This document shows, piece by piece, positions 4,255 to 17,076 of a stretch of 45,442 nucleotides of DNA. Numbering within the stretch: position 1 is the stretch's first letter; every line of letters starts with the position of its first letter. Origin of the DNA: a virus. Its lineage: Duplodnaviria; Heunggongvirae; Uroviricota; Caudoviricetes. The notes under the pieces were generated by a model that worked only from the letters and a program-made list of their open reading frames with translations, ran no database searches and was not told the origin of the DNA. The DNA is taken from the IMG/VR virus record IMGVR_UViG_2534681703_000014, positions 1-45,442 of that record. One strand, written 5' to 3'. The position numbers and the translations under genes are program-made.

Positions 4255-4458
4255 TTACGGCGCTGTTTTTAATCCTGCCGGGATTTCGTTATTATCCATG
4301 CGAATAACTTTCTCGACCAGATAACAGTTACCAGGAATTTTCTGTTCTGCTGCGGCAGCCATACATTCTTTCATTGAACCATATATACCAGTAACCACAT
4401 CAACAGGTTCGCCAGTATTAAGAAAAACAGTCAGAGTGAGGGCAACAGCAGTCTTCAT
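4255..4458 (-). CDS. Hypothetical small early protein (67 aa)
   Basis: ORF in the early-left operon; ATGA start/stop overlap with upstream ORF suggests translational coupling; no recognised domain. Confidence 0.4.
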   Translation of the reverse strand: MKTAVALTLTVFLNTGEPVDVVTGIYGSMKECMAAAAEQKIPGNCYLVEKVIRMDNNEIPAGLKTAP

Positions 4459-4748
4459 TGCCAGCGTCCTTTTTGCATCAGGCGTAAACGGGCCAGCATT
4501 GAAACAATGCATATTTTATTTAATAACTCCCGTTCGTGTTTTCTCTTGTTAATGGCATCTTCAGTAAATACAGGGTTACTGATAGTGACACCAATTTCAA
4601 AACAACCTTCAGACGTATTAACGTTTGGTAATAACGTTTCCATTATCGCGTCCTCAACAATGAATTTTGTGATGCGGTGCCTGGTGCCTCCAGGTGACGT
4701 TAACCAGTTAACAATTAACGCCGGATACAGAGAATCCACCCATAACAC
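4455..4748 (-). CDS. Hypothetical early protein
   Basis: ORF co-oriented with the early-left operon; start codon uncertain. Confidence 0.4.
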   Translation of the reverse strand: MLWVDSLYPALIVNWLTSPGGTRHRITKFIVEDAIMETLLPNVNTSEGCFEIGVTISNPVFTEDAINKRKHERELLNKICIVSMLARLRLMQKGRWQ

Positions 4749-5204
4749 TGTTTTTGGTTTTAACTGTTCCGCGTGCGCTTAGCCGCATTCACCGCATCAC
4801 AAAATTCACTTTAAAAAGGGCGGCAGAGCAGTCACGGAGTAAAACTGATACCGCTAAACGCCACCAGAAAATTGATAACAGAGGGCGTTGCAGCGGGGTT
4901 GTCACTTAAGCGTATGGTCAACCTGACAACCCGGTGTCCTCAACGGGGAAGGAATAACCCCGCCATACTTACCGCCGCGCCATTTCGCGGATTGCCACAA
5001 CCGGAAGCGCACGGTCGACGAAAATTTAACGACAGGCTATCTATGAACCAGCAACCTCGCCGTGCGCTTTCGCGTTATGCTCTGACTTTTCAGAGAAATA
5101 TCCTTTCAGTAAACTGTCAGTACCGGATGCTCACCCGTGTCCGGCGCACGCACTCCACCTCACCCGTGGAGAACTCCTTAAGTACCAACCCTCAGGATGG
5201 TGAA

Positions 5205-6637: not shown

Positions 6638-6916
6638 TTAGGGAAACTGGCGTCTTGCGTGGATCACGTTTACTACTTCAACGCTTGATGTTGTTACGCG
6701 GTATAGAATTATATAGTTAGGGTGGGCTACAATCTCACGCAAGCCAGGTACTCTGTCGCTTGGTGGGTATAAATACGGATGTTCGGATAACGGCAGCACA
6801 CAACCCCTTAATCGCTGCCATAAGCGTTCAGCCGCATCTATGTCGAAACGAGCAATATAACTAGTTATATCATCTAGGTCGGTATCTGCGCTTTCAAGCC
6901 ATAACACGGGTAACAT
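6638..6916 (-). CDS. Type II toxin, RelE/ParE superfamily (92 aa from internal ATG)
   Basis: Size, basic C-terminus (...NVIHARRQFP) and pairing with an upstream small RHH-like antitoxin ORF whose stop is 1 nt from this start; family call from remembered ParE-like sequences. Confidence 0.65.
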   Translation of the reverse strand: MLPVLWLESADTDLDDITSYIARFDIDAAERLWQRLRGCVLPLSEHPYLYPPSDRVPGLREIVAHPNYIILYRVTTSSVEVVNVIHARRQFP

Positions 6917-6917
6917 T

Positions 6918-7109
6918 TTACTGCTTGCTCCGTTCCTTGCGCATTTTAGCAAAGCGTTCTGCCATTCTGCGCTCAACTTCGTCATGGGGAATTGCTGGGC
7001 GTGGATCTGCAAGGCTCGTTGCTACTTTTGCACGCAGCCATTCGTTGTAACTGTTTTCTTGTTCAATGGTTTCAAATTCAGAAACCATTGGTGAAAGGGC
7101 TCTATTCAT
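6918..7109 (-). CDS. Type II antitoxin, ParD-like (63 aa)
   Basis: Small ORF MNRALSPMVSEFETIEQENSYNEWLRAKVATSLADPRPAIPHDEVERRMAERFAKMRKERSKQ with strong GGAGG SD; immediately precedes the ParE-like ORF. Confidence 0.6.
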   Translation of the reverse strand: MNRALSPMVSEFETIEQENSYNEWLRAKVATSLADPRPAIPHDEVERRMAERFAKMRKERSKQ

Positions 7110-7129
7110 GTTTCCTCCGGTTTTATAAC

Positions 7130-7501
7130 TCAGGCGCGGCGGCATTTTTGCGCCGCAATCCATCTCGCTATGAGATCTTCCATTGATTCTTTTTTCTGCT
7201 TTAACTCGCTGATTATCTGGCGTTGCTCATCCTCAGGGAAGGCTGAAAAAATCTGCAATAATTCCAGTTGATTAGACGTTAACCCTGCATGTGGTGGAGA
7301 AACCTCCGGTTGTTCTGCGTATTCCGCATCCAGATACCCTTCCGGCATCCCGTATGTTTGCTCTATTCTTCTGGCAGCCTTTTCTCCAAACGAGGCTCTC
7401 CCACTCATTAGTTGAGATAGGTAGCTCTTCTCTTTGGGTGGCAGAGTTTTATCTTTAAACCACTCCTTGAGACGTAAACGGCGAATTTCTTTTTTTTGCA
7501 T
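7130..7501 (-). CDS. Prophage repressor, short HTH (XRE-like) protein without a peptidase domain (123 aa)
   Basis: HTH-like segment SYLSQLMSGRASFGEKAARRIEQTYG; divergent from a Cro-like gene across a 98-bp operator region. Confidence 0.65.
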   Translation of the reverse strand: MQKKEIRRLRLKEWFKDKTLPPKEKSYLSQLMSGRASFGEKAARRIEQTYGMPEGYLDAEYAEQPEVSPPHAGLTSNQLELLQIFSAFPEDEQRQIISELKQKKESMEDLIARWIAAQKCRRA

Positions 7502-7599
7502 GTGGTAATTATCTTTAGTAATCACTAAACAAGCAAATACTTGACTTAATGGTTTATTAAACACTAAACTCTCAAAAAAAACACTAAACCGAGGAAGGT
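7502..7599. promoter_or_regulatory. Divergent promoter/operator region (OR-like) with three CACTAAAC repeats and a TTGACT -35-like hexamer
   Basis: CACTAAAC at 7523-7530, 7562-7569 and 7582-7589; TTGACT followed about 18 nt later by TAAACT upstream of the cro-like start. Confidence 0.55.
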
Positions 7600-7902
7600 A
7601 TGACATTAAAAGAGTTTATTAAATCATTGAGGGTTGGTGATGCTAAGAAATTCGCAGCCAGACTTGGTGTATCGCCATCTTACTTATCGCAAATGGCGTC
7701 TGGACGAGCAGCTATATCTCCAACACGCGCCCTTATGATCGAATCTGCGACGGAAGGCCAAGTAAGTAGGGCGGAGCTACGACCCCATGATTGGGAGCTT
7801 ATTTGGCCTGAGTATGCGAGCGGCATTCGTTTGGGGCAAACACATGTAGTTCATGCTGAAGGTGATTGTAGTGCATGCTTATCTGATGGAGTTGATTCAT
7901 GA
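7600..7902 (+). CDS. Cro/YdaS-like HTH regulator (100 aa)
   Basis: HTH-like segment KKFAARLGVSPSYLSQMASGRAAISP; first rightward gene after the operator, as in Rac-type immunity regions. Confidence 0.7.
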   Translation: MTLKEFIKSLRVGDAKKFAARLGVSPSYLSQMASGRAAISPTRALMIESATEGQVSRAELRPHDWELIWPEYASGIRLGQTHVVHAEGDCSACLSDGVDS

Positions 7903-11679: not shown

Positions 11680-12366
11680 ATGACCACAATAAATACGTTT
11701 ATGACAGTTGCTGATTTCAAACGGCCTAAATTGGAGCTCCCAAACGGGGCAAACAAACTACTACTGCACTCTTGCTGTGCTCCATGTTCCGGTGAAGTGA
11801 TGGAGGCGCTTCAGGCCTCGGGAATCGACTACACCATCTTTTTCTACAACCCGAACATTCATCCTCAGAAAGAGTATTTAATTCGTAAGGATGAGAATAT
11901 TCGCTTTGCTGAACAACACGGCGTGCAGTTTATCGATGCTGATTACGACACAGACAACTGGTTTGAACGTGCCAAAGGAATGGAATGGGAGCCCGAGAGG
12001 GGGATCCGTTGTACCATGTGTTTTGACATGCGTTTTGAGCGGACAGCGTTGTACGCTGCTGAAAATGGTTTCAGTGTGATCAGCAGTTCGCTGGGCATTT
12101 CACGCTGGAAAAATATGCAGCAGGTTAACGACTGTGGGCGGCGAGCCGTCGCGCATTATCCGGGAATGGTGTACTGGGATTATAACTGGCGCAAGCAGGG
12201 CGGCTCGTCCCGTATGATTGAAATCAGCAAGCGCGAAAAATTCTATCAGCAGGAATATTGTGGCTGTGTGTATTCTCTGCGCGATACCAATCTACACCGC
12301 AAATCTCAGGGACGCCCTCTTATCAAAATTGGTCAACTCCACTACGGTAAAGAAGAGAAGGAGTGA
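11680..12366 (+). CDS. queH: Epoxyqueuosine reductase QueH family (DUF208)
   Basis: N-terminal [11 protein letters not shown] and later CGCVYS motifs match the QueH/DUF208 Cys signature as I recall it; 228 aa. Confidence 0.7.
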
Positions 12367-12602
12367 TTTTATGGATCACCTTTCTGATTGATTTCATATT
12401 GGCGAGGTAGCAGGAGTTAAGTAGAATTGCTGCGGGTGCTTGAGGCTATCTGTCTCAGGCATGAACACCAAAAGGCAGATAGAGAAAAGCCCCAGTTAAC
12501 ATTACGCGTCCTGCAAGACGCTTAACATTAATCTGAGGCCATATCTATGCGACACATAGAGATTAGCCTCTTACGGACCGAAAGGTCAAGGAGAAGCAGG
12601 CT

Positions 12603-12758
12603 ATGAAGCAGCGAAAGGCGATGTTAATCGCCCTGATCGTCATCTGTTTAACCGTCATAGTGACGGCACTGGTAACGAGGAAAGACCTCTGCGAGGTACG
12701 AATCCGAACCGGCCAGACGGAGGTCGCTGTCTTCACAGCTTACGAACCTGAGGAGTAA
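12603..12758 (+). CDS. hok: Hok/Gef-family type I toxin (51 aa)
   Basis: Translation MKQRKAMLIALIVICLTVIVTALVTRKDLCEVRIRTGQTEVAVFTAYEPEE aligns by eye with Hok ([52 protein letters not shown]); not in the ORF track (under 60 aa). Confidence 0.7.
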   Translation: MKQRKAMLIALIVICLTVIVTALVTRKDLCEVRIRTGQTEVAVFTAYEPEE

Positions 12759-12827
12759 GAGACCTGGCGGGGGAGAAATCCCTCGCCACCTCTGATGTGT
12801 CAGGCATCCTCAATGCACCCGCACTTA

Positions 12828-12853
12828 ACCCGCTTCGGCGGGTTTTGTTTTTT
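12828..12853 (+). terminator. Rho-independent terminator downstream of hok
   Basis: Hairpin ACCCGC-TTCG-GCGGGT followed by TTTGTTTTTT. Confidence 0.55.
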
Positions 12854-12925
12854 CTGAGCATCCTGGTTTACAATCTACAGGCCAGCCTGAACAACTGGCA
12901 CCTGCTGCGCCAGCAGAGAAAACCG

Positions 12926-13199: not shown

Positions 13200-14255
13200 G
13201 TGCGGGTATTACTTCGACCTGTTCTGGTGCCGGAACTTGGGGTGGTTATCGTTAAGCCAGGTCGTGAATCCATGCAGGTATTCCATAACGGCAGAGTGCT
13301 GGTTGAACCGGAGCCAAAAAGCATGCGCGGTCTGCCGTCCGGGGTCGTTCCTGCCGTTCGCCAGCCGCTGGCGGAGGATAAATCATTACTGCCATTTTTC
13401 AGCGATGAGCGGGTGATTCGTGCTGCTGGTGGTGCTGGTGCATTGTCTGACTGGCTGTTGCGCCATATTAAATCCTGCCAGTGGCCACACGGCGATTATC
13501 ATCACAGCGAAACCGTCATTCACCGTTATGGTACCGGCGCAATGGTGTTGTGCTGGCACTGCGACAACCAGCTGCGTGACCAGACATCCGAATCACTCGA
13601 GCAACTTGCTCATCAAAACCTGTCAGCATGGATGATTGATGTCATACGCCATGCAATGAATGGCACGCAGGAGCGGGAATTATCGCTGGCTGAATTATCC
13701 TGGTGGGCAACCATAAATAACGTAGCGGACGCACTACCGGAGACGGTATTACGTCGTTCGCTGGGATTACGCGCGGAAAAAATCCGCTCGGTGTACCGCG
13801 AAAGCGACATCATACCGGGAGAGCAGACAGCCACCAGCATCCTGAAACAGCGCACAAAAAGTATTGCGCTACTGCCTCACGCCCACCAGCAAAACCCGCC
13901 ACAGGAAAAGACGGTGGTCAGCATTGCCGTTGATCCGGAGTCACCGGCTCAGTATCTCCAGCGCCAGAAACCACAACGGGAAGAGATGCCCGTATACACG
14001 CGCTGGGTAAAAACGCAGAAATGCATGACGTGTGGCAATCAGGCAGATGATCCGCATCACATCATTGGTCATGGACTGGGAGGGATGGGAACAAAGGCTG
14101 ATGATTTGTTTGTTATTCCGCTGTGCCGTAAATGCCATAGCGAACTACACGCCGGGGTAAAAGATTTTGAAGAAAAACACGGCAGCCAGCTGTTGTTGCT
14201 GATTCGTTTTTTAATGCACGCGAGAAATTCGGGTGTCCTGAAGTGGAAAGCATGA
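13200..14255 (+). CDS. DUF968-family protein (YdfU-like), with C-terminal Cys/His cluster
   Basis: GTG start with GGAGG SD; 351 aa; C-terminal CGNQADDPHHIIGHG...CRKCHSELH motif; immediately upstream of rusA as in Qin/DLP12-type prophages. Confidence 0.6.
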   Translation: MRVLLRPVLVPELGVVIVKPGRESMQVFHNGRVLVEPEPKSMRGLPSGVVPAVRQPLAEDKSLLPFFSDERVIRAAGGAGALSDWLLRHIKSCQWPHGDYHHSETVIHRYGTGAMVLCWHCDNQLRDQTSESLEQLAHQNLSAWMIDVIRHAMNGTQERELSLAELSWWATINNVADALPETVLRRSLGLRAEKIRSVYRESDIIPGEQTATSILKQRTKSIALLPHAHQQNPPQEKTVVSIAVDPESPAQYLQRQKPQREEMPVYTRWVKTQKCMTCGNQADDPHHIIGHGLGGMGTKADDLFVIPLCRKCHSELHAGVKDFEEKHGSQLLLLIRFLMHARNSGVLKWKA

Positions 14256-14986: not shown

Positions 14987-15373
14987 CTACTCGTTTGCTT
15001 GAGCTTTCGATTCGGCGTCAGATAAAGCATCAATACGAATATTTATGTTTTTTAATAGCTTATTGTCTAGATCGATAAGACATTGGTTGTAGTGCGCAAT
15101 TTGGTCTGGTGTTAGGTTAGGGTTGGCCAGGCAGTTCGTGATGAATTTTCTGGCCGTTTTTATTTCCCTTTTCATTCTTACATCATTAAGCGTAGGCAAA
15201 CCTATGTAAGCGATAAGAAGAATTACCACATGAGATAAGCCGACAGCAGCTCCAGGCGCCAATGATTTGAAGAAGGCTAATTGAGGAAGCCAGTCAAAAA
15301 GGAAATTCAATCCCGCAGTGATAAGGGTGGTAAACCATGCCTGCATTGCCAGGTAGGATTTAGTGTTCGCCAT
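14987..15373 (-). CDS. Unknown membrane protein (128 aa, about 2 predicted TM helices); third gene of antisense 3-gene cassette
   Basis: Hydrophobic segments WFTTLITAGLNFLF and AVGLSHVVILLIAYIGL; start codon directly abuts the stop of the upstream gene; AT-rich. Confidence 0.5.
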   Translation of the reverse strand: MANTKSYLAMQAWFTTLITAGLNFLFDWLPQLAFFKSLAPGAAVGLSHVVILLIAYIGLPTLNDVRMKREIKTARKFITNCLANPNLTPDQIAHYNQCLIDLDNKLLKNINIRIDALSDAESKAQANE

Positions 15374-15619
15374 TCACCTTCCTGCACTTGCTTCGTTGCG
15401 AGTTTTGAGTTCGCGTAGCAGTAGCGCCAACTCTTCTGCGTCATTTTCGTTTCTAACGCTGACTTTCCTTTTAGCGGTTCTGCCTTCAGGATCGGTGTAG
15501 GTTAGTTCAATATACGCATTCGGCTTTACCCAAACCAAGAACCTAAGCACAGCATATCTGACCGTCGCTGCGACAGCCATGAATACAGTGATGTAAAGCA
15601 TAATGCTTAGGATTGACAT
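15374..15619 (-). CDS. Unknown small membrane protein (81 aa, N-terminal TM); second gene of cassette
   Basis: N-terminal hydrophobic ILSIMLYITVFMAVAATV; 3-nt gap to upstream gene stop. Confidence 0.5.
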   Translation of the reverse strand: MSILSIMLYITVFMAVAATVRYAVLRFLVWVKPNAYIELTYTDPEGRTAKRKVSVRNENDAEELALLLRELKTRNEASAGR

Positions 15620-15622
15620 GAT

Positions 15623-16534
15623 TTAAAGTAGTTTCCTATCTGCCGCCGCTCTGTGGCGTATAACCTTAGTAATACTATAGCGTGGTTTAGACAGCGCGCC
15701 ATTTGTTTCTTTTGTTGTTTCTGTCAGTTCTACAACAAAAAGATCACCCTTACAGAATGCTGCTTGGTTGTGTTCAACCCGTTCAAGAAAAGCCTCATCT
15801 TTCATAGATGCACTAACTTCTTCGCCATTTGGCAGGATGATATCCCAGCTTTTGCCTTGCTTGAATCGAACATTAGCAAAATGTACATTAGCTTGGCGTG
15901 TCGTTACGTGCGTTTTCTCGACAAAGGTGGATTTTGCAGTTTTAAAACTTACTGCTTCAGCTTGCGTCACCCTGACTACCTTATGCTTCTGCTGTGAAAC
16001 TGAGAACGTGGATGGTTTTTCAGTCTGCAGGGGTTTATAGATTAATTTATCCAGTTCTTTTCGGATGATTGGACTGGTTATTAATTTTTGAATGTCGTTA
16101 CTGCATTTAACCTTCTCACCATCCACTTCGATTTCTGCTGTATCTTTTTGTTCATCGACGACAATGGAGCTGATTTTACGCCCTTTGAGCCATTCGATTA
16201 TCCCGAGTACGCCACCTGCGGCAACTCCACCACCTGCAACGAGGCCAAGGGCGTTAATAGTTTTTATGCTCCCCATCACAGCAACAAGCAAAGTAAATGA
16301 ACCTTCTTTTGTTGCCTTGATGTTGACTTTCGGCTCTGCTGTTTCGCCATTAATTATTTTTTCGGCGTGTTCAATCAGGGCACTAAGAGAGGTTAAGGCT
16401 TCGCCTAATGTTTTCGCGTCGATCTGATTATCTGCGTATGCCTCTCCACCGTAGGCAATTTCGATTTCTGTTATTGGCATGTTTTCGAGTTGCTGCGTCA
16501 TCAAAAGCATCCTTTGCGCAAGAGAAATAGCCAC
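15623..16534 (-). CDS. Unknown 303-aa protein with central Gly-rich hydrophobic segment and Lys-rich C-terminal domain; first gene of cassette
   Basis: Long ORF; hydrophobic FTLLVAVMGSIKTINALGLVAGGGVAAGGVLGIIEWL near residues 80-115; start uncertain (GTG 16534, ATG 16510 or 16480); no family recognised. Confidence 0.55.
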   Translation of the reverse strand: MAISLAQRMLLMTQQLENMPITEIEIAYGGEAYADNQIDAKTLGEALTSLSALIEHAEKIINGETAEPKVNIKATKEGSFTLLVAVMGSIKTINALGLVAGGGVAAGGVLGIIEWLKGRKISSIVVDEQKDTAEIEVDGEKVKCSNDIQKLITSPIIRKELDKLIYKPLQTEKPSTFSVSQQKHKVVRVTQAEAVSFKTAKSTFVEKTHVTTRQANVHFANVRFKQGKSWDIILPNGEEVSASMKDEAFLERVEHNQAAFCKGDLFVVELTETTKETNGALSKPRYSITKVIRHRAAADRKLL

Positions 16535-16766: not shown

Positions 16767-16842
16767 GGCCCTTTAGCTCAGTGGTGAGAGCGAGCGACTC
16801 ATAATCGCCAGGTCGCTGGTTCAAATCCAGCAAGGGCCACCA
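16767..16842 (+). tRNA. tRNA with CAU anticodon, resembling E. coli tRNA-Ile2 (ileX-like); Met cannot be excluded
   Basis: Manual cloverleaf: acceptor GGCCCTT/AAGGGCC, D-arm GCTC..GAGC, anticodon loop CTCATAA, T-arm GCTGG-TTCAAAT-CCAGC, 3' ACCA. Confidence 0.85.
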
Positions 16843-16843
16843 A

Positions 16844-16920
16844 CCGCCACTAGCTCATCAGGAAAGAGCGTCAACCCTTTAAGTTGAGTGTGCGAGGTTC
16901 GAGTCCCCGGTGGCGGTCCA
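16844..16920 (+). tRNA. Atypical tRNA-like gene, apparent anticodon UUU (Lys) with C33 and U73
   Basis: Acceptor CCGCCAC/GTGGCGG, D-arm GCTC..GAGC, anticodon stem TCAAC/GTTGA with loop CCTTTAA, T-loop TTCGAGT with one stem mismatch, 3' TCCA. Confidence 0.5.
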
Positions 16921-16922
16921 GT

Positions 16923-16998
<76 letters not shown>

Positions 16999-17001
16999 TA
17001 T

Positions 17002-17076
<75 letters not shown>

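Follow-up and report, generated by a model that had tools for sequence, protein, structure and literature searches.

The window analysed here, a 45,442-nucleotide (nt) stretch of viral DNA (Caudoviricetes; IMG/VR record IMGVR_UViG_2534681703_000014), contains a locus that we read, with a probability of about 0.88, as an intact hok/mok/sok cassette of the HokD/HokW clade that is regulated according to the plasmid R1 model and likely helps lysis when the prophage is induced. The hok/sok pair is a textbook toxin–antitoxin (TA) system of type I, and the locus is an ordinary, already known and routinely annotated element of a kind that most E. coli lambdoid prophages carry. Published work describes hok genes as enriched in prophages and includes an experimental test of a 91%-identical prophage copy; beyond a correct annotation, the value of the present analysis lies in a base-level map of the regulatory elements and of the predicted Sok RNA for the window copy.

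A Hok toxin gene behind a conserved leader

The toxin gene is an intact open reading frame (ORF) of 51 amino acids (aa) on the plus strand (12603–12758), which an earlier sequence-only reading of the window had picked out as hok by eye. It encodes a Hok/Gef toxin that matched Pfam HOK_GEF (PF01848; E=1.2e-23, 82.9 bits, cutoff 22) and PHROG 251, 'MokW-like host killing' (E=2.7e-32). Its translation, MKQRKAMLIALIVICLTVIVTALVTRKDLCEVRIRTGQTEVAVFTAYEPEE, is canonical HokD with the single change Q4R (50/51 residues the same, 98%), and the exact Q4R protein exists in public records as 'type I toxin-antitoxin system toxin HokD [Escherichia coli]' on 247 contigs. NCBIfam Hok subfamily models scored the window toxin under their own cutoffs (48.4 versus 73), but the exact protein carries the NCBI name HokD. 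Of 5426 complete E. coli genomes, 4956 (approximately 90%) contain the 491-bp hok region, which is annotated there as hokD and occupies a median of 2 places per genome; 102 phage records also match it, with annotations that read MokW, HokD, gef or host-killer. The highest full-length DNA identity among the complete E. coli genomes was 97.2%, to the hokD locus of E. coli JNEC-KY178. Close identity to hokD and hokW, together with a site in the early-right (nin-like) region of a lambdoid prophage, places the locus in the HokD/HokW clade.

Upstream of the toxin gene, the sequence-only reading had marked 12400–12602 as a long GC-rich leader. A long conserved hok leader is indeed present, but it is not GC-rich (48.3% versus 51.0% for the window), and it extends from approximately 12434, the transcript start indicated by homology, with 12400–12433 belonging to the promoter region. 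The predicted hok promoter, found by a consensus scan (9/12 matches), consists of a −35 TTGGCG and a −10 TAGAAT separated by a 17-nt spacer (12399–12427, plus strand); the −10 and its distance to GGGTGC are kept in the aligned relatives. The full-length hok (mok–hok) mRNA is predicted at approximately 420 nt (12434–12853, plus strand), with its ends placed by homology and by the start of the Rfam model, and in 39 relatives the conserved 5′ sequence GGGUGCUUGAGG begins at the position corresponding to 12434. A search of Rfam, which had been suggested as a check for Sok RNA, returned a match of the leader to the whole of RF01794 (model positions 1–157) at 12434–12605, scoring 106.7 bits (gathering score 59; E=2.2e-23). 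RF01794 is named 'sok antitoxin', but it matches the sense (hok mRNA) strand and stops at the hok AUG; the match thus marks the hok leader, and the true Sok is the reverse complement of part of the RF01794 stretch. Pfam, Rfam, PHROG, the identity to the HokD protein and the 91% DNA identity to hokW–sokW (below) all bear out a hok-type type I locus.

Downstream, the intrinsic terminator noticed in the sequence-only reading was recovered by a terminator scan as a 7-bp stem (12827–12844) followed by a T-run (12827–12853 in all, plus strand) and is conserved in hokD-type relatives. Weaker matches at 14180 and 14829 aside, no other plus-strand site between the immunity region and Q reached 7 stem pairs in that scan, and the hok terminator may double as the nin-type terminator of the early-right operon. 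Minus-strand ORFs over the hok 3′ untranslated region (UTR) and terminator (12733–12861) found no support and are best read as over-annotation; ORFs called there in relatives ('hypothetical protein', 'Mobile element protein') lie at 12361–12558 and 1921–2043, both on the minus strand, in the coordinates of their own records.

A tac–fbi lock and a predicted fold switch

Element definitions were taken from PMC9841398, and the window was aligned with 39–44 relatives from Escherichia, Shigella, Kluyvera, Citrobacter, Pseudocitrobacter, Pantoea and Photorhabdus. By sequence, every regulatory element of the plasmid R1 hok/sok model can be mapped in the window locus, all of the following on the plus strand. 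The translational activator element, tac (GGGUGCUUGAGG, 12434–12445), stands at the 5′ end and pairs either with the fold-back inhibitory element, fbi (CCUCAAUGCACCC, 12808–12820), in full-length RNA or with ucb, the mok anti-Shine–Dalgarno (SD) element (AAAAGCCCCAG, 12485–12495), after 3′ processing. The mok SD, GAGG (12535–12538), is invariant in 39 relatives, lies 8 nt upstream of the mok ATG and is the same motif as that described for R1 (PMC9841398). The dcb element (AGCCUCUUAC, 12565–12574) has GCCTCTT and a final C invariant in 39/39 relatives and an A preceding the final C in 38/39; in the closed form it base-pairs both with the hok SD region and with GUAAGAG at the hok stop, and in the open form its partner is the mok SD. 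The hok SD, GGAG (12590–12593), is situated 9 nt before the AUG within a conserved AAGGAG.

The predicted folds agree with these assignments. The 420-nt RNA has a minimum free energy (MFE) of −175.1 kcal/mol (z=−7.8 against shuffled sequences), and in this structure tac is closed with fbi at 12808–12820, ucb nucleotides 12489–12495 pair with the mok SD region (12533–12539), and the hok SD is sequestered by 12569–12572. The tac–fbi duplex alone comprises 12 bp (−19.8 kcal/mol). Of 26 distinct tac/fbi combinations, 25 retain the pairing, the exception being the K-12-type hokC (−6.6 kcal/mol) beside IS186; elsewhere the duplex energy ranges from about −17 to −26 kcal/mol, and the K-12-type hokC is thus a natural disrupted locus that serves as a negative control. 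Shorter forms of the RNA fold differently: the nascent 27 nt yield a metastable tac hairpin (−13.1 kcal/mol), and the 5′ 62 nt alone form the tac–ucb stem (−25.8 kcal/mol). When tac–ucb pairing is enforced in the 3′-truncated RNA, the structure lies 1.0 kcal/mol above the MFE and the hairpin of mok SD and dcb then forms. This Sok-target stem-loop of the processed mRNA (12535–12570), which falls within the Rfam consensus structure, pairs the mok SD GAGGC (12535–12539) with dcb GCCUC (12566–12570) and encloses an inner hairpin (12544–12560) of UCUAUG/CAUAGA (12544–12549/12555–12560) around the loop CGACA (12550–12554). The hairpin is kept in relatives though their sequences differ.

Comparative evidence was drawn from an RNAalifold consensus of 39 sequences with 67 pairs, 17 of which carry compensatory changes. 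In a pair-count control, 98.5% of cells were paired, versus 37.7–44.8% with partners slid. Pairs changed on both sides numbered 17, versus 9.8±1.3 in shuffled alignments (0/500 reach 17) and 1–7 with partners slid, with the caveat that the structure was predicted from the same alignment that was used to count. Covariation touches the tac–fbi duplex itself (U–A 25 / C–G 11 at alignment columns 4–408), and the helix between ucb and the mok SD (columns 56–61/101–107) contains one compensatory pair (A–U 27 / G–C 12 at 61–101). The switch stems consist mostly of invariant pairs, so that conservation, not covariation, carries the argument for the ucb/SD/dcb switch. The hok leader, the tac–fbi lock, the closed-form ucb stem with its alternative tac–ucb pairing, and the open-form mok SD–dcb stem were all found. 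The alignment with hok loci including fold-back elements, proposed as a check by the sequence-only reading, accordingly returned tac and fbi, with the conserved mRNA structure and an antisense promoter in place and the ORF intact.

Further elements lie within and behind the toxin gene. A 3′ UTR stem-loop (GGCGGGGG...CCCUCGCC, 12766–12787, plus strand; helices 13 and 14, with compensatory changes) would, by analogy with R1 mutational data (PMC9841398), protect the processed mRNA at its 3′ end. Inside the coding region, a small covarying hairpin (CAG...CUG, helix 12; 12736–12750, plus strand) with the loop UUACGAA has a 3-bp stem that covaries across genera (CG 25 / UA 14 and GC 23 / AU 14), and TACGAA is invariant. 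This loop holds the Tyr47 codon TAC (12741–12743) and is similar to the tRNA-Arg anticodon loop recognised by TadA. A-to-I editing that converts Tyr to Cys has been described for hokB and also for hokC/D/E (preprint 10.1101/2025.08.07.668861); from its sequence, the Tyr47 codon in the loop is a candidate TadA editing site of this kind.

A predicted antisense Sok RNA

On the opposite strand we located a putative cis-antisense sok gene that has a promoter of its own and whose predicted RNA is complementary to the mok start region. The sok promoter (12560–12589, minus strand) is predicted from a −35 TTGACC, the reverse complement of 12584–12589, an 18-nt spacer and a −10 TAATCT, the reverse complement of 12560–12565. 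The positions of both hexamers hold across genera, in 27 distinct relatives, and the −10 aligns with the sokW TAACCT, the element destroyed by primers YO-421/422 in the 'pro-less' construct that unmasks HokW toxicity (PMC8621323). The predicted Sok RNA is approximately 77 nt long (12555→12479; 12479–12555, minus strand) and can be aligned over its whole length with the curated sokC of K-12, relative to which its hairpin is lengthened by an 18-nt insertion. Its predicted fold comprises a single-stranded 5′ tail, a long hairpin and a U-rich 3′ end, CUUUUCUCUAU (−32.2 kcal/mol, z=−6.1). The expectation of the sequence-only reading that the leader carries mok and sok elements was thus confirmed at the level of a conserved mok SD and ATG, an antisense promoter, and a Sok-like hairpin with a U-run aligned to sokC.

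Among 76 phage-borne loci in IMG/VR with the identical HokD protein, 23 distinct sequences occur between the mok SD and the hok ATG. They vary chiefly in the brief stretch behind the mok ATG from which the Sok-target hairpin is built, and the flanks are nearly invariant; this variation would fit a diversification of Sok specificity among co-resident copies.

A 19-codon mok that ends on the hok start codon

The mok leader ORF (MRHIEISLLRTERSRRSRL, 12547–12606, plus strand) has 19 codons and its own SD, and its ATG aligns with annotated mok and mokC starts. The mok frame that the sequence-only reading had foreseen is therefore present, but the extensive overlap with hok is not: the mok stop UGA (12604–12606) overlaps the hok AUG as AUGA, and the two frames share ATGA only. 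Phage Rac 442/2 has an annotated 68-aa mok that overlaps hok; compared with it, the window carries a 2-nt deletion directly after the mok ATG, which sets the spacing between the mok and hok ATGs to 56 nt and closes the frame after 19 codons. Most loci, including K-12 mokC and hokW, have a 57-nt spacing, in frame, that gives an extended Hok of 68–70 aa, and this spacing occurs in 76 of the 80 best IMG/VR loci. A spacing of 58 nt produces an out-of-frame overlap with a mok of 55–69 aa. Both the window and JNEC-KY178 have the 56-nt spacing, as do, separately, hokC-type loci in E. ruysiae and E. whittamii. As the spacing varies between 56, 57 and 58 nt among loci, the Mok peptide is not conserved.

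The short frame is expected to suffice, since in R1 mok translation is required only to the hok start, that is, over the first 19 codons, and stops beyond the hok start are harmless (PMC9841398). The leader ORF in the window reaches the hok start, although it is shorter than the classical 70 codons, and as a natural 19-codon allele it fits the mutational conclusion that translation to the hok start is sufficient. In 702 E. coli records, a 121-nt segment with the window mok allele is matched at ≥99% identity; these records share the allele, because a 2-nt gap would pull identity under 99%. The 56-nt form is frequent in E. coli chromosomes and appears to have arisen at least twice, in hokD-type and in hokC-type loci. 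We raise, as a tentative and rather doubtful idea, that in 56-nt alleles, where hok starts AUGA and a mini-mok stops on the hok AUG, a distinct termination–reinitiation coupling alters Hok output or Sok sensitivity, so that the allele would not be neutral. A recent large survey states that Mok was left unanalysed.

Several observations weigh against reading the cassette as intact and R1-like. The toxin carries Q4R relative to canonical HokD; the sok −10 matches the consensus at 3/6 positions and lies below the threshold of a generic sigma-70 scan; the YUNR U-turn motif, which is decisive in the target loop for fast Sok binding in R1, was not found in the window Sok-target loop CGACA; the unconstrained MFE structure of the truncated RNA has the local tac hairpin, not tac–ucb; the 19-codon mok was not found among the 80 best phage-borne HokD loci; chromosomal hokA/B/C loci, in earlier assays, gave no post-segregational killing; and for the window copy we infer the transcript ends, the processing step and Sok. 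The locus could accordingly be an evolutionary relic whose elements look intact but in which killing or regulation has been lost, through the mok frameshift, the lost U-turn or Q4R. The 2-nt deletion relative to Rac 442/2 that reduces mok to 19 codons also leaves a 5-nt target loop lacking YUNR, relic status has been proposed for chromosomal hok loci, and K-12 hokD has no leader at all.

We consider a relic improbable. The hok ORF is intact, and so are the two SDs, the two promoters, tac/fbi, ucb/dcb, the 3′ stem-loop and the terminator; the HokD peptide is toxic on expression according to the literature, the 19-codon allele recurs in the 702 records noted above, and the separate appearance of the 56-nt phase in E. 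ruysiae and E. whittamii also speaks against decay. Because YUNR is missing from 16 of the 35 distinct relatives that were folded, it is better regarded as a kinetic feature of R1 than as a universal criterion of the family, and its absence is not evidence of decay. Taking this together with the 702 records and the harmless R1 stops, we rejected the short mok and the lost YUNR as signs of decay. We likewise rejected the scan miss as a sign that the sok promoter is absent, the hexamers being conserved across genera and aligned with the mutated sokW −10.

Proposed mechanism and role

For the intact cassette we propose a mechanism whose sequence-level parts were computed here and whose translation block, processing, Sok instability and RNase III cleavage are taken from the R1 model. 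Transcription from the promoter at 12399–12427 would yield the approximately 420-nt mRNA, in which tac (12434–12445) pairs with fbi (12808–12820). In this predicted closed form the ucb anti-SD covers the mok SD and dcb covers the hok SD, and the RNA would be neither translated nor bound by Sok. Slow trimming of the 3′ end would take off fbi, tac would move to ucb, and the mok SD and dcb would form the Sok-target hairpin. Ribosomes on the 19-codon mok would then enter the hok start region and stop at the UGA in AUGA, which would open the hok start. Short-lived Sok of approximately 77 nt would pair across the mok start region, block mok translation and trigger RNase III cleavage; as Sok blocks mok translation, Hok would, in the model, be made only once the supply of Sok stops. 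Hok, a small inner-membrane peptide, would depolarise and lyse the cell.

In the lysogen the locus would be repressed, and Hok would be produced after induction, aiding lysis and phage release; by analogy, a hokW-type lysis assist on induction is the most likely role, with prophage stabilisation a possibility as a secondary one. The hok gene is co-oriented with the early-right genes, and once the prophage is induced, read-through from an early promoter could disturb the convergent sok promoter; we propose that such interference would explain the loss of sokW RNA, which is unexplained in the literature.

Even with this mechanism, the cassette might serve mainly for prophage addiction, or for keeping out superinfecting lytic phages through abortive infection, rather than for lysis. 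In R1, hok/sok is responsible for post-segregational killing and also lowers the plating efficiency and plaque size of T4, the literature gives an approximately fourfold enrichment of hok genes in prophages, and a ParE/PaaA2 module and a PDC-S42 candidate defence gene on the same prophage (below) fit a cargo for stabilisation or defence. Lysis aid, addiction and exclusion are indistinguishable by sequence. The sole direct test of a prophage-borne relative, the 91%-identical hokW–sokW, however, showed increased release of its own phage after induction, and hok is reportedly not enriched beside defence systems. We therefore regard addiction or exclusion as possible but the less probable main role, and help with lysis on induction as the preferred one.

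Prophage context

The locus lies in the nin-equivalent region of a Qin/Rac-like lambdoid prophage, with QueH upstream and DUF968, RusA and Q downstream. The closest 8-kb match in complete E. coli genomes has approximately 95% identity over 82–85% coverage. Directly upstream of hok, 11680–12366 (plus strand) encodes an epoxyqueuosine reductase, QueH (PF02677, E=1.6e-65), a tRNA-modification cargo gene. In the corresponding position JNEC-KY178 has a transporter, a DUF2254 gene and a peptidase, and the different genes at this position indicate that the cargo carried just upstream of hok varies.

The sequence-only reading had taken hok to be a second toxin system on the same prophage, and other toxin genes are indeed present. 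A module in the immunity region (6638–7606, minus strand) comprises a repressor-like gene of 158 aa (7130–7606, minus strand) with a weak match to the DicA C terminus, a PaaA2-type antitoxin of 63 aa from the ATG at 7109 (minus strand; PF21217, E=1e-19; NCBIfam RelB-family antitoxin, E=5.2e-24) and a ParE toxin of 92 aa from the ATG at 6916 (minus strand; PF05016, E=1.9e-16); the arrangement resembles that of paaR2–paaA2–parE2 in O157 cryptic prophages. DicB (62 aa, 4455–4643, minus strand) starts from an internal ATG of the ORF 4455–4748 (PF05358, E=4.4e-39), and the small RNA DicF lies at 4818–4869 (minus strand, 68.6 bits), both being present as in Qin-type prophages. YdaS/YdaT matches carry 'toxin' in their Pfam names, but the status of these proteins as toxins is doubtful. 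We set them aside as the other toxin system, as they occupy the position of Cro/CII-type regulators and ParE/PaaA2 is the clear one.

Between Q and the tRNA array, three minus-strand ORFs had no Pfam hits (15623–16534, 15374–15619 and 14987–15373). The first of these (302 aa) matches PDC-S42, a candidate defence family in PADLOC (E=3.3e-53), and PHROG 3243, whose function is not assigned; the other two match PHROGs that likewise have no assigned function. With ParE/PaaA2, DicB/DicF, hok/sok and the PDC-S42 candidate, the prophage stacks toxic and defence modules. Four tRNA genes (16767–17076, plus strand; Met-CAT, Lys-TTT, Thr-TGT and Gly-TCC) lie between Q and the lysis genes, where the closest E. 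coli relative has Ile, Thr and Gly tRNAs.

Comparison with known systems

All named regulatory elements of the plasmid R1 hok/mok/sok locus are also present in the window and fold as the R1 model predicts. The R1 mok has 70 codons, overlaps hok out of frame and is carried on a plasmid, whereas the window mok has 19 codons and lies on a prophage. HokW is 44% identical to R1 Hok, and the window protein is close to HokW. The K-12 hokC/mokC/sokC leader is homologous to that of the window, and its curated sokC is the RNA to which the predicted Sok aligns; in K-12 hokC, however, the fbi partner has been lost, with IS186 directly downstream, and mokC is an in-frame 69-aa extension of HokC.

With hokD (relF) of E. 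coli, including copies in Qin-type prophages, the window shares a toxin that differs by Q4R only. K-12-type hokD lies behind relBE and lacks a mok/sok leader; the window copy, in contrast, has the full leader. The hokD locus of JNEC-KY178 shares the genomic context of the window, running from an exonuclease, ydfD, dicB and ydaS/ydaT-like genes through hokD, DUF968, RusA and Q to tRNAs, lysis genes and the terminase.

The closest experimentally studied relative is hokW–sokW of Sakai prophage 5 (Sp5), the Stx2 phage of E. coli O157:H7; all seven tested hokW/sokW primer sequences (PMC8621323) have exact matches in Stx2 converting phage I (AP004402). Over 399 nt, the window mRNA shares 91.2% identity with the hokW–sokW sequence, and 46/51 residues are identical between HokW and the window Hok, both of 51 aa. 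The two loci are alike in their lambdoid-prophage site, in the layout of promoter, tac, ucb, dcb and fbi, and in the aligned position of the sok −10. They differ in the spacing from mok to hok (57 nt in hokW, in frame, giving a 70-aa extended Hok; 56 nt with a 19-codon mok in the window), in the target loop (CUGAACA, with YUNR, versus CGACA), in the sok −35/−10 (TTGCCT/TAACCT versus TTGACC/TAATCT) and in the C terminus (VFVDYESEK versus VFTAYEPEE), and the terminator sequence that follows fbi directly in the hokD type is missing from hokW. Of the R1 features, 3′ processing, an unstable Sok, RNase III cleavage and toxicity on Sok loss are documented for hokW–sokW only in part. The hokW–sokW pair is a type I TA system whose antitoxin activity depends partly on RNase III and Hfq (PMC8621323). 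After mitomycin C treatment, sokW RNA vanishes and HokW is made in a RecA-dependent manner (PMC8621323), and the release of Sp5 is approximately twofold higher with hokW–sokW than without it (PMC8621323).

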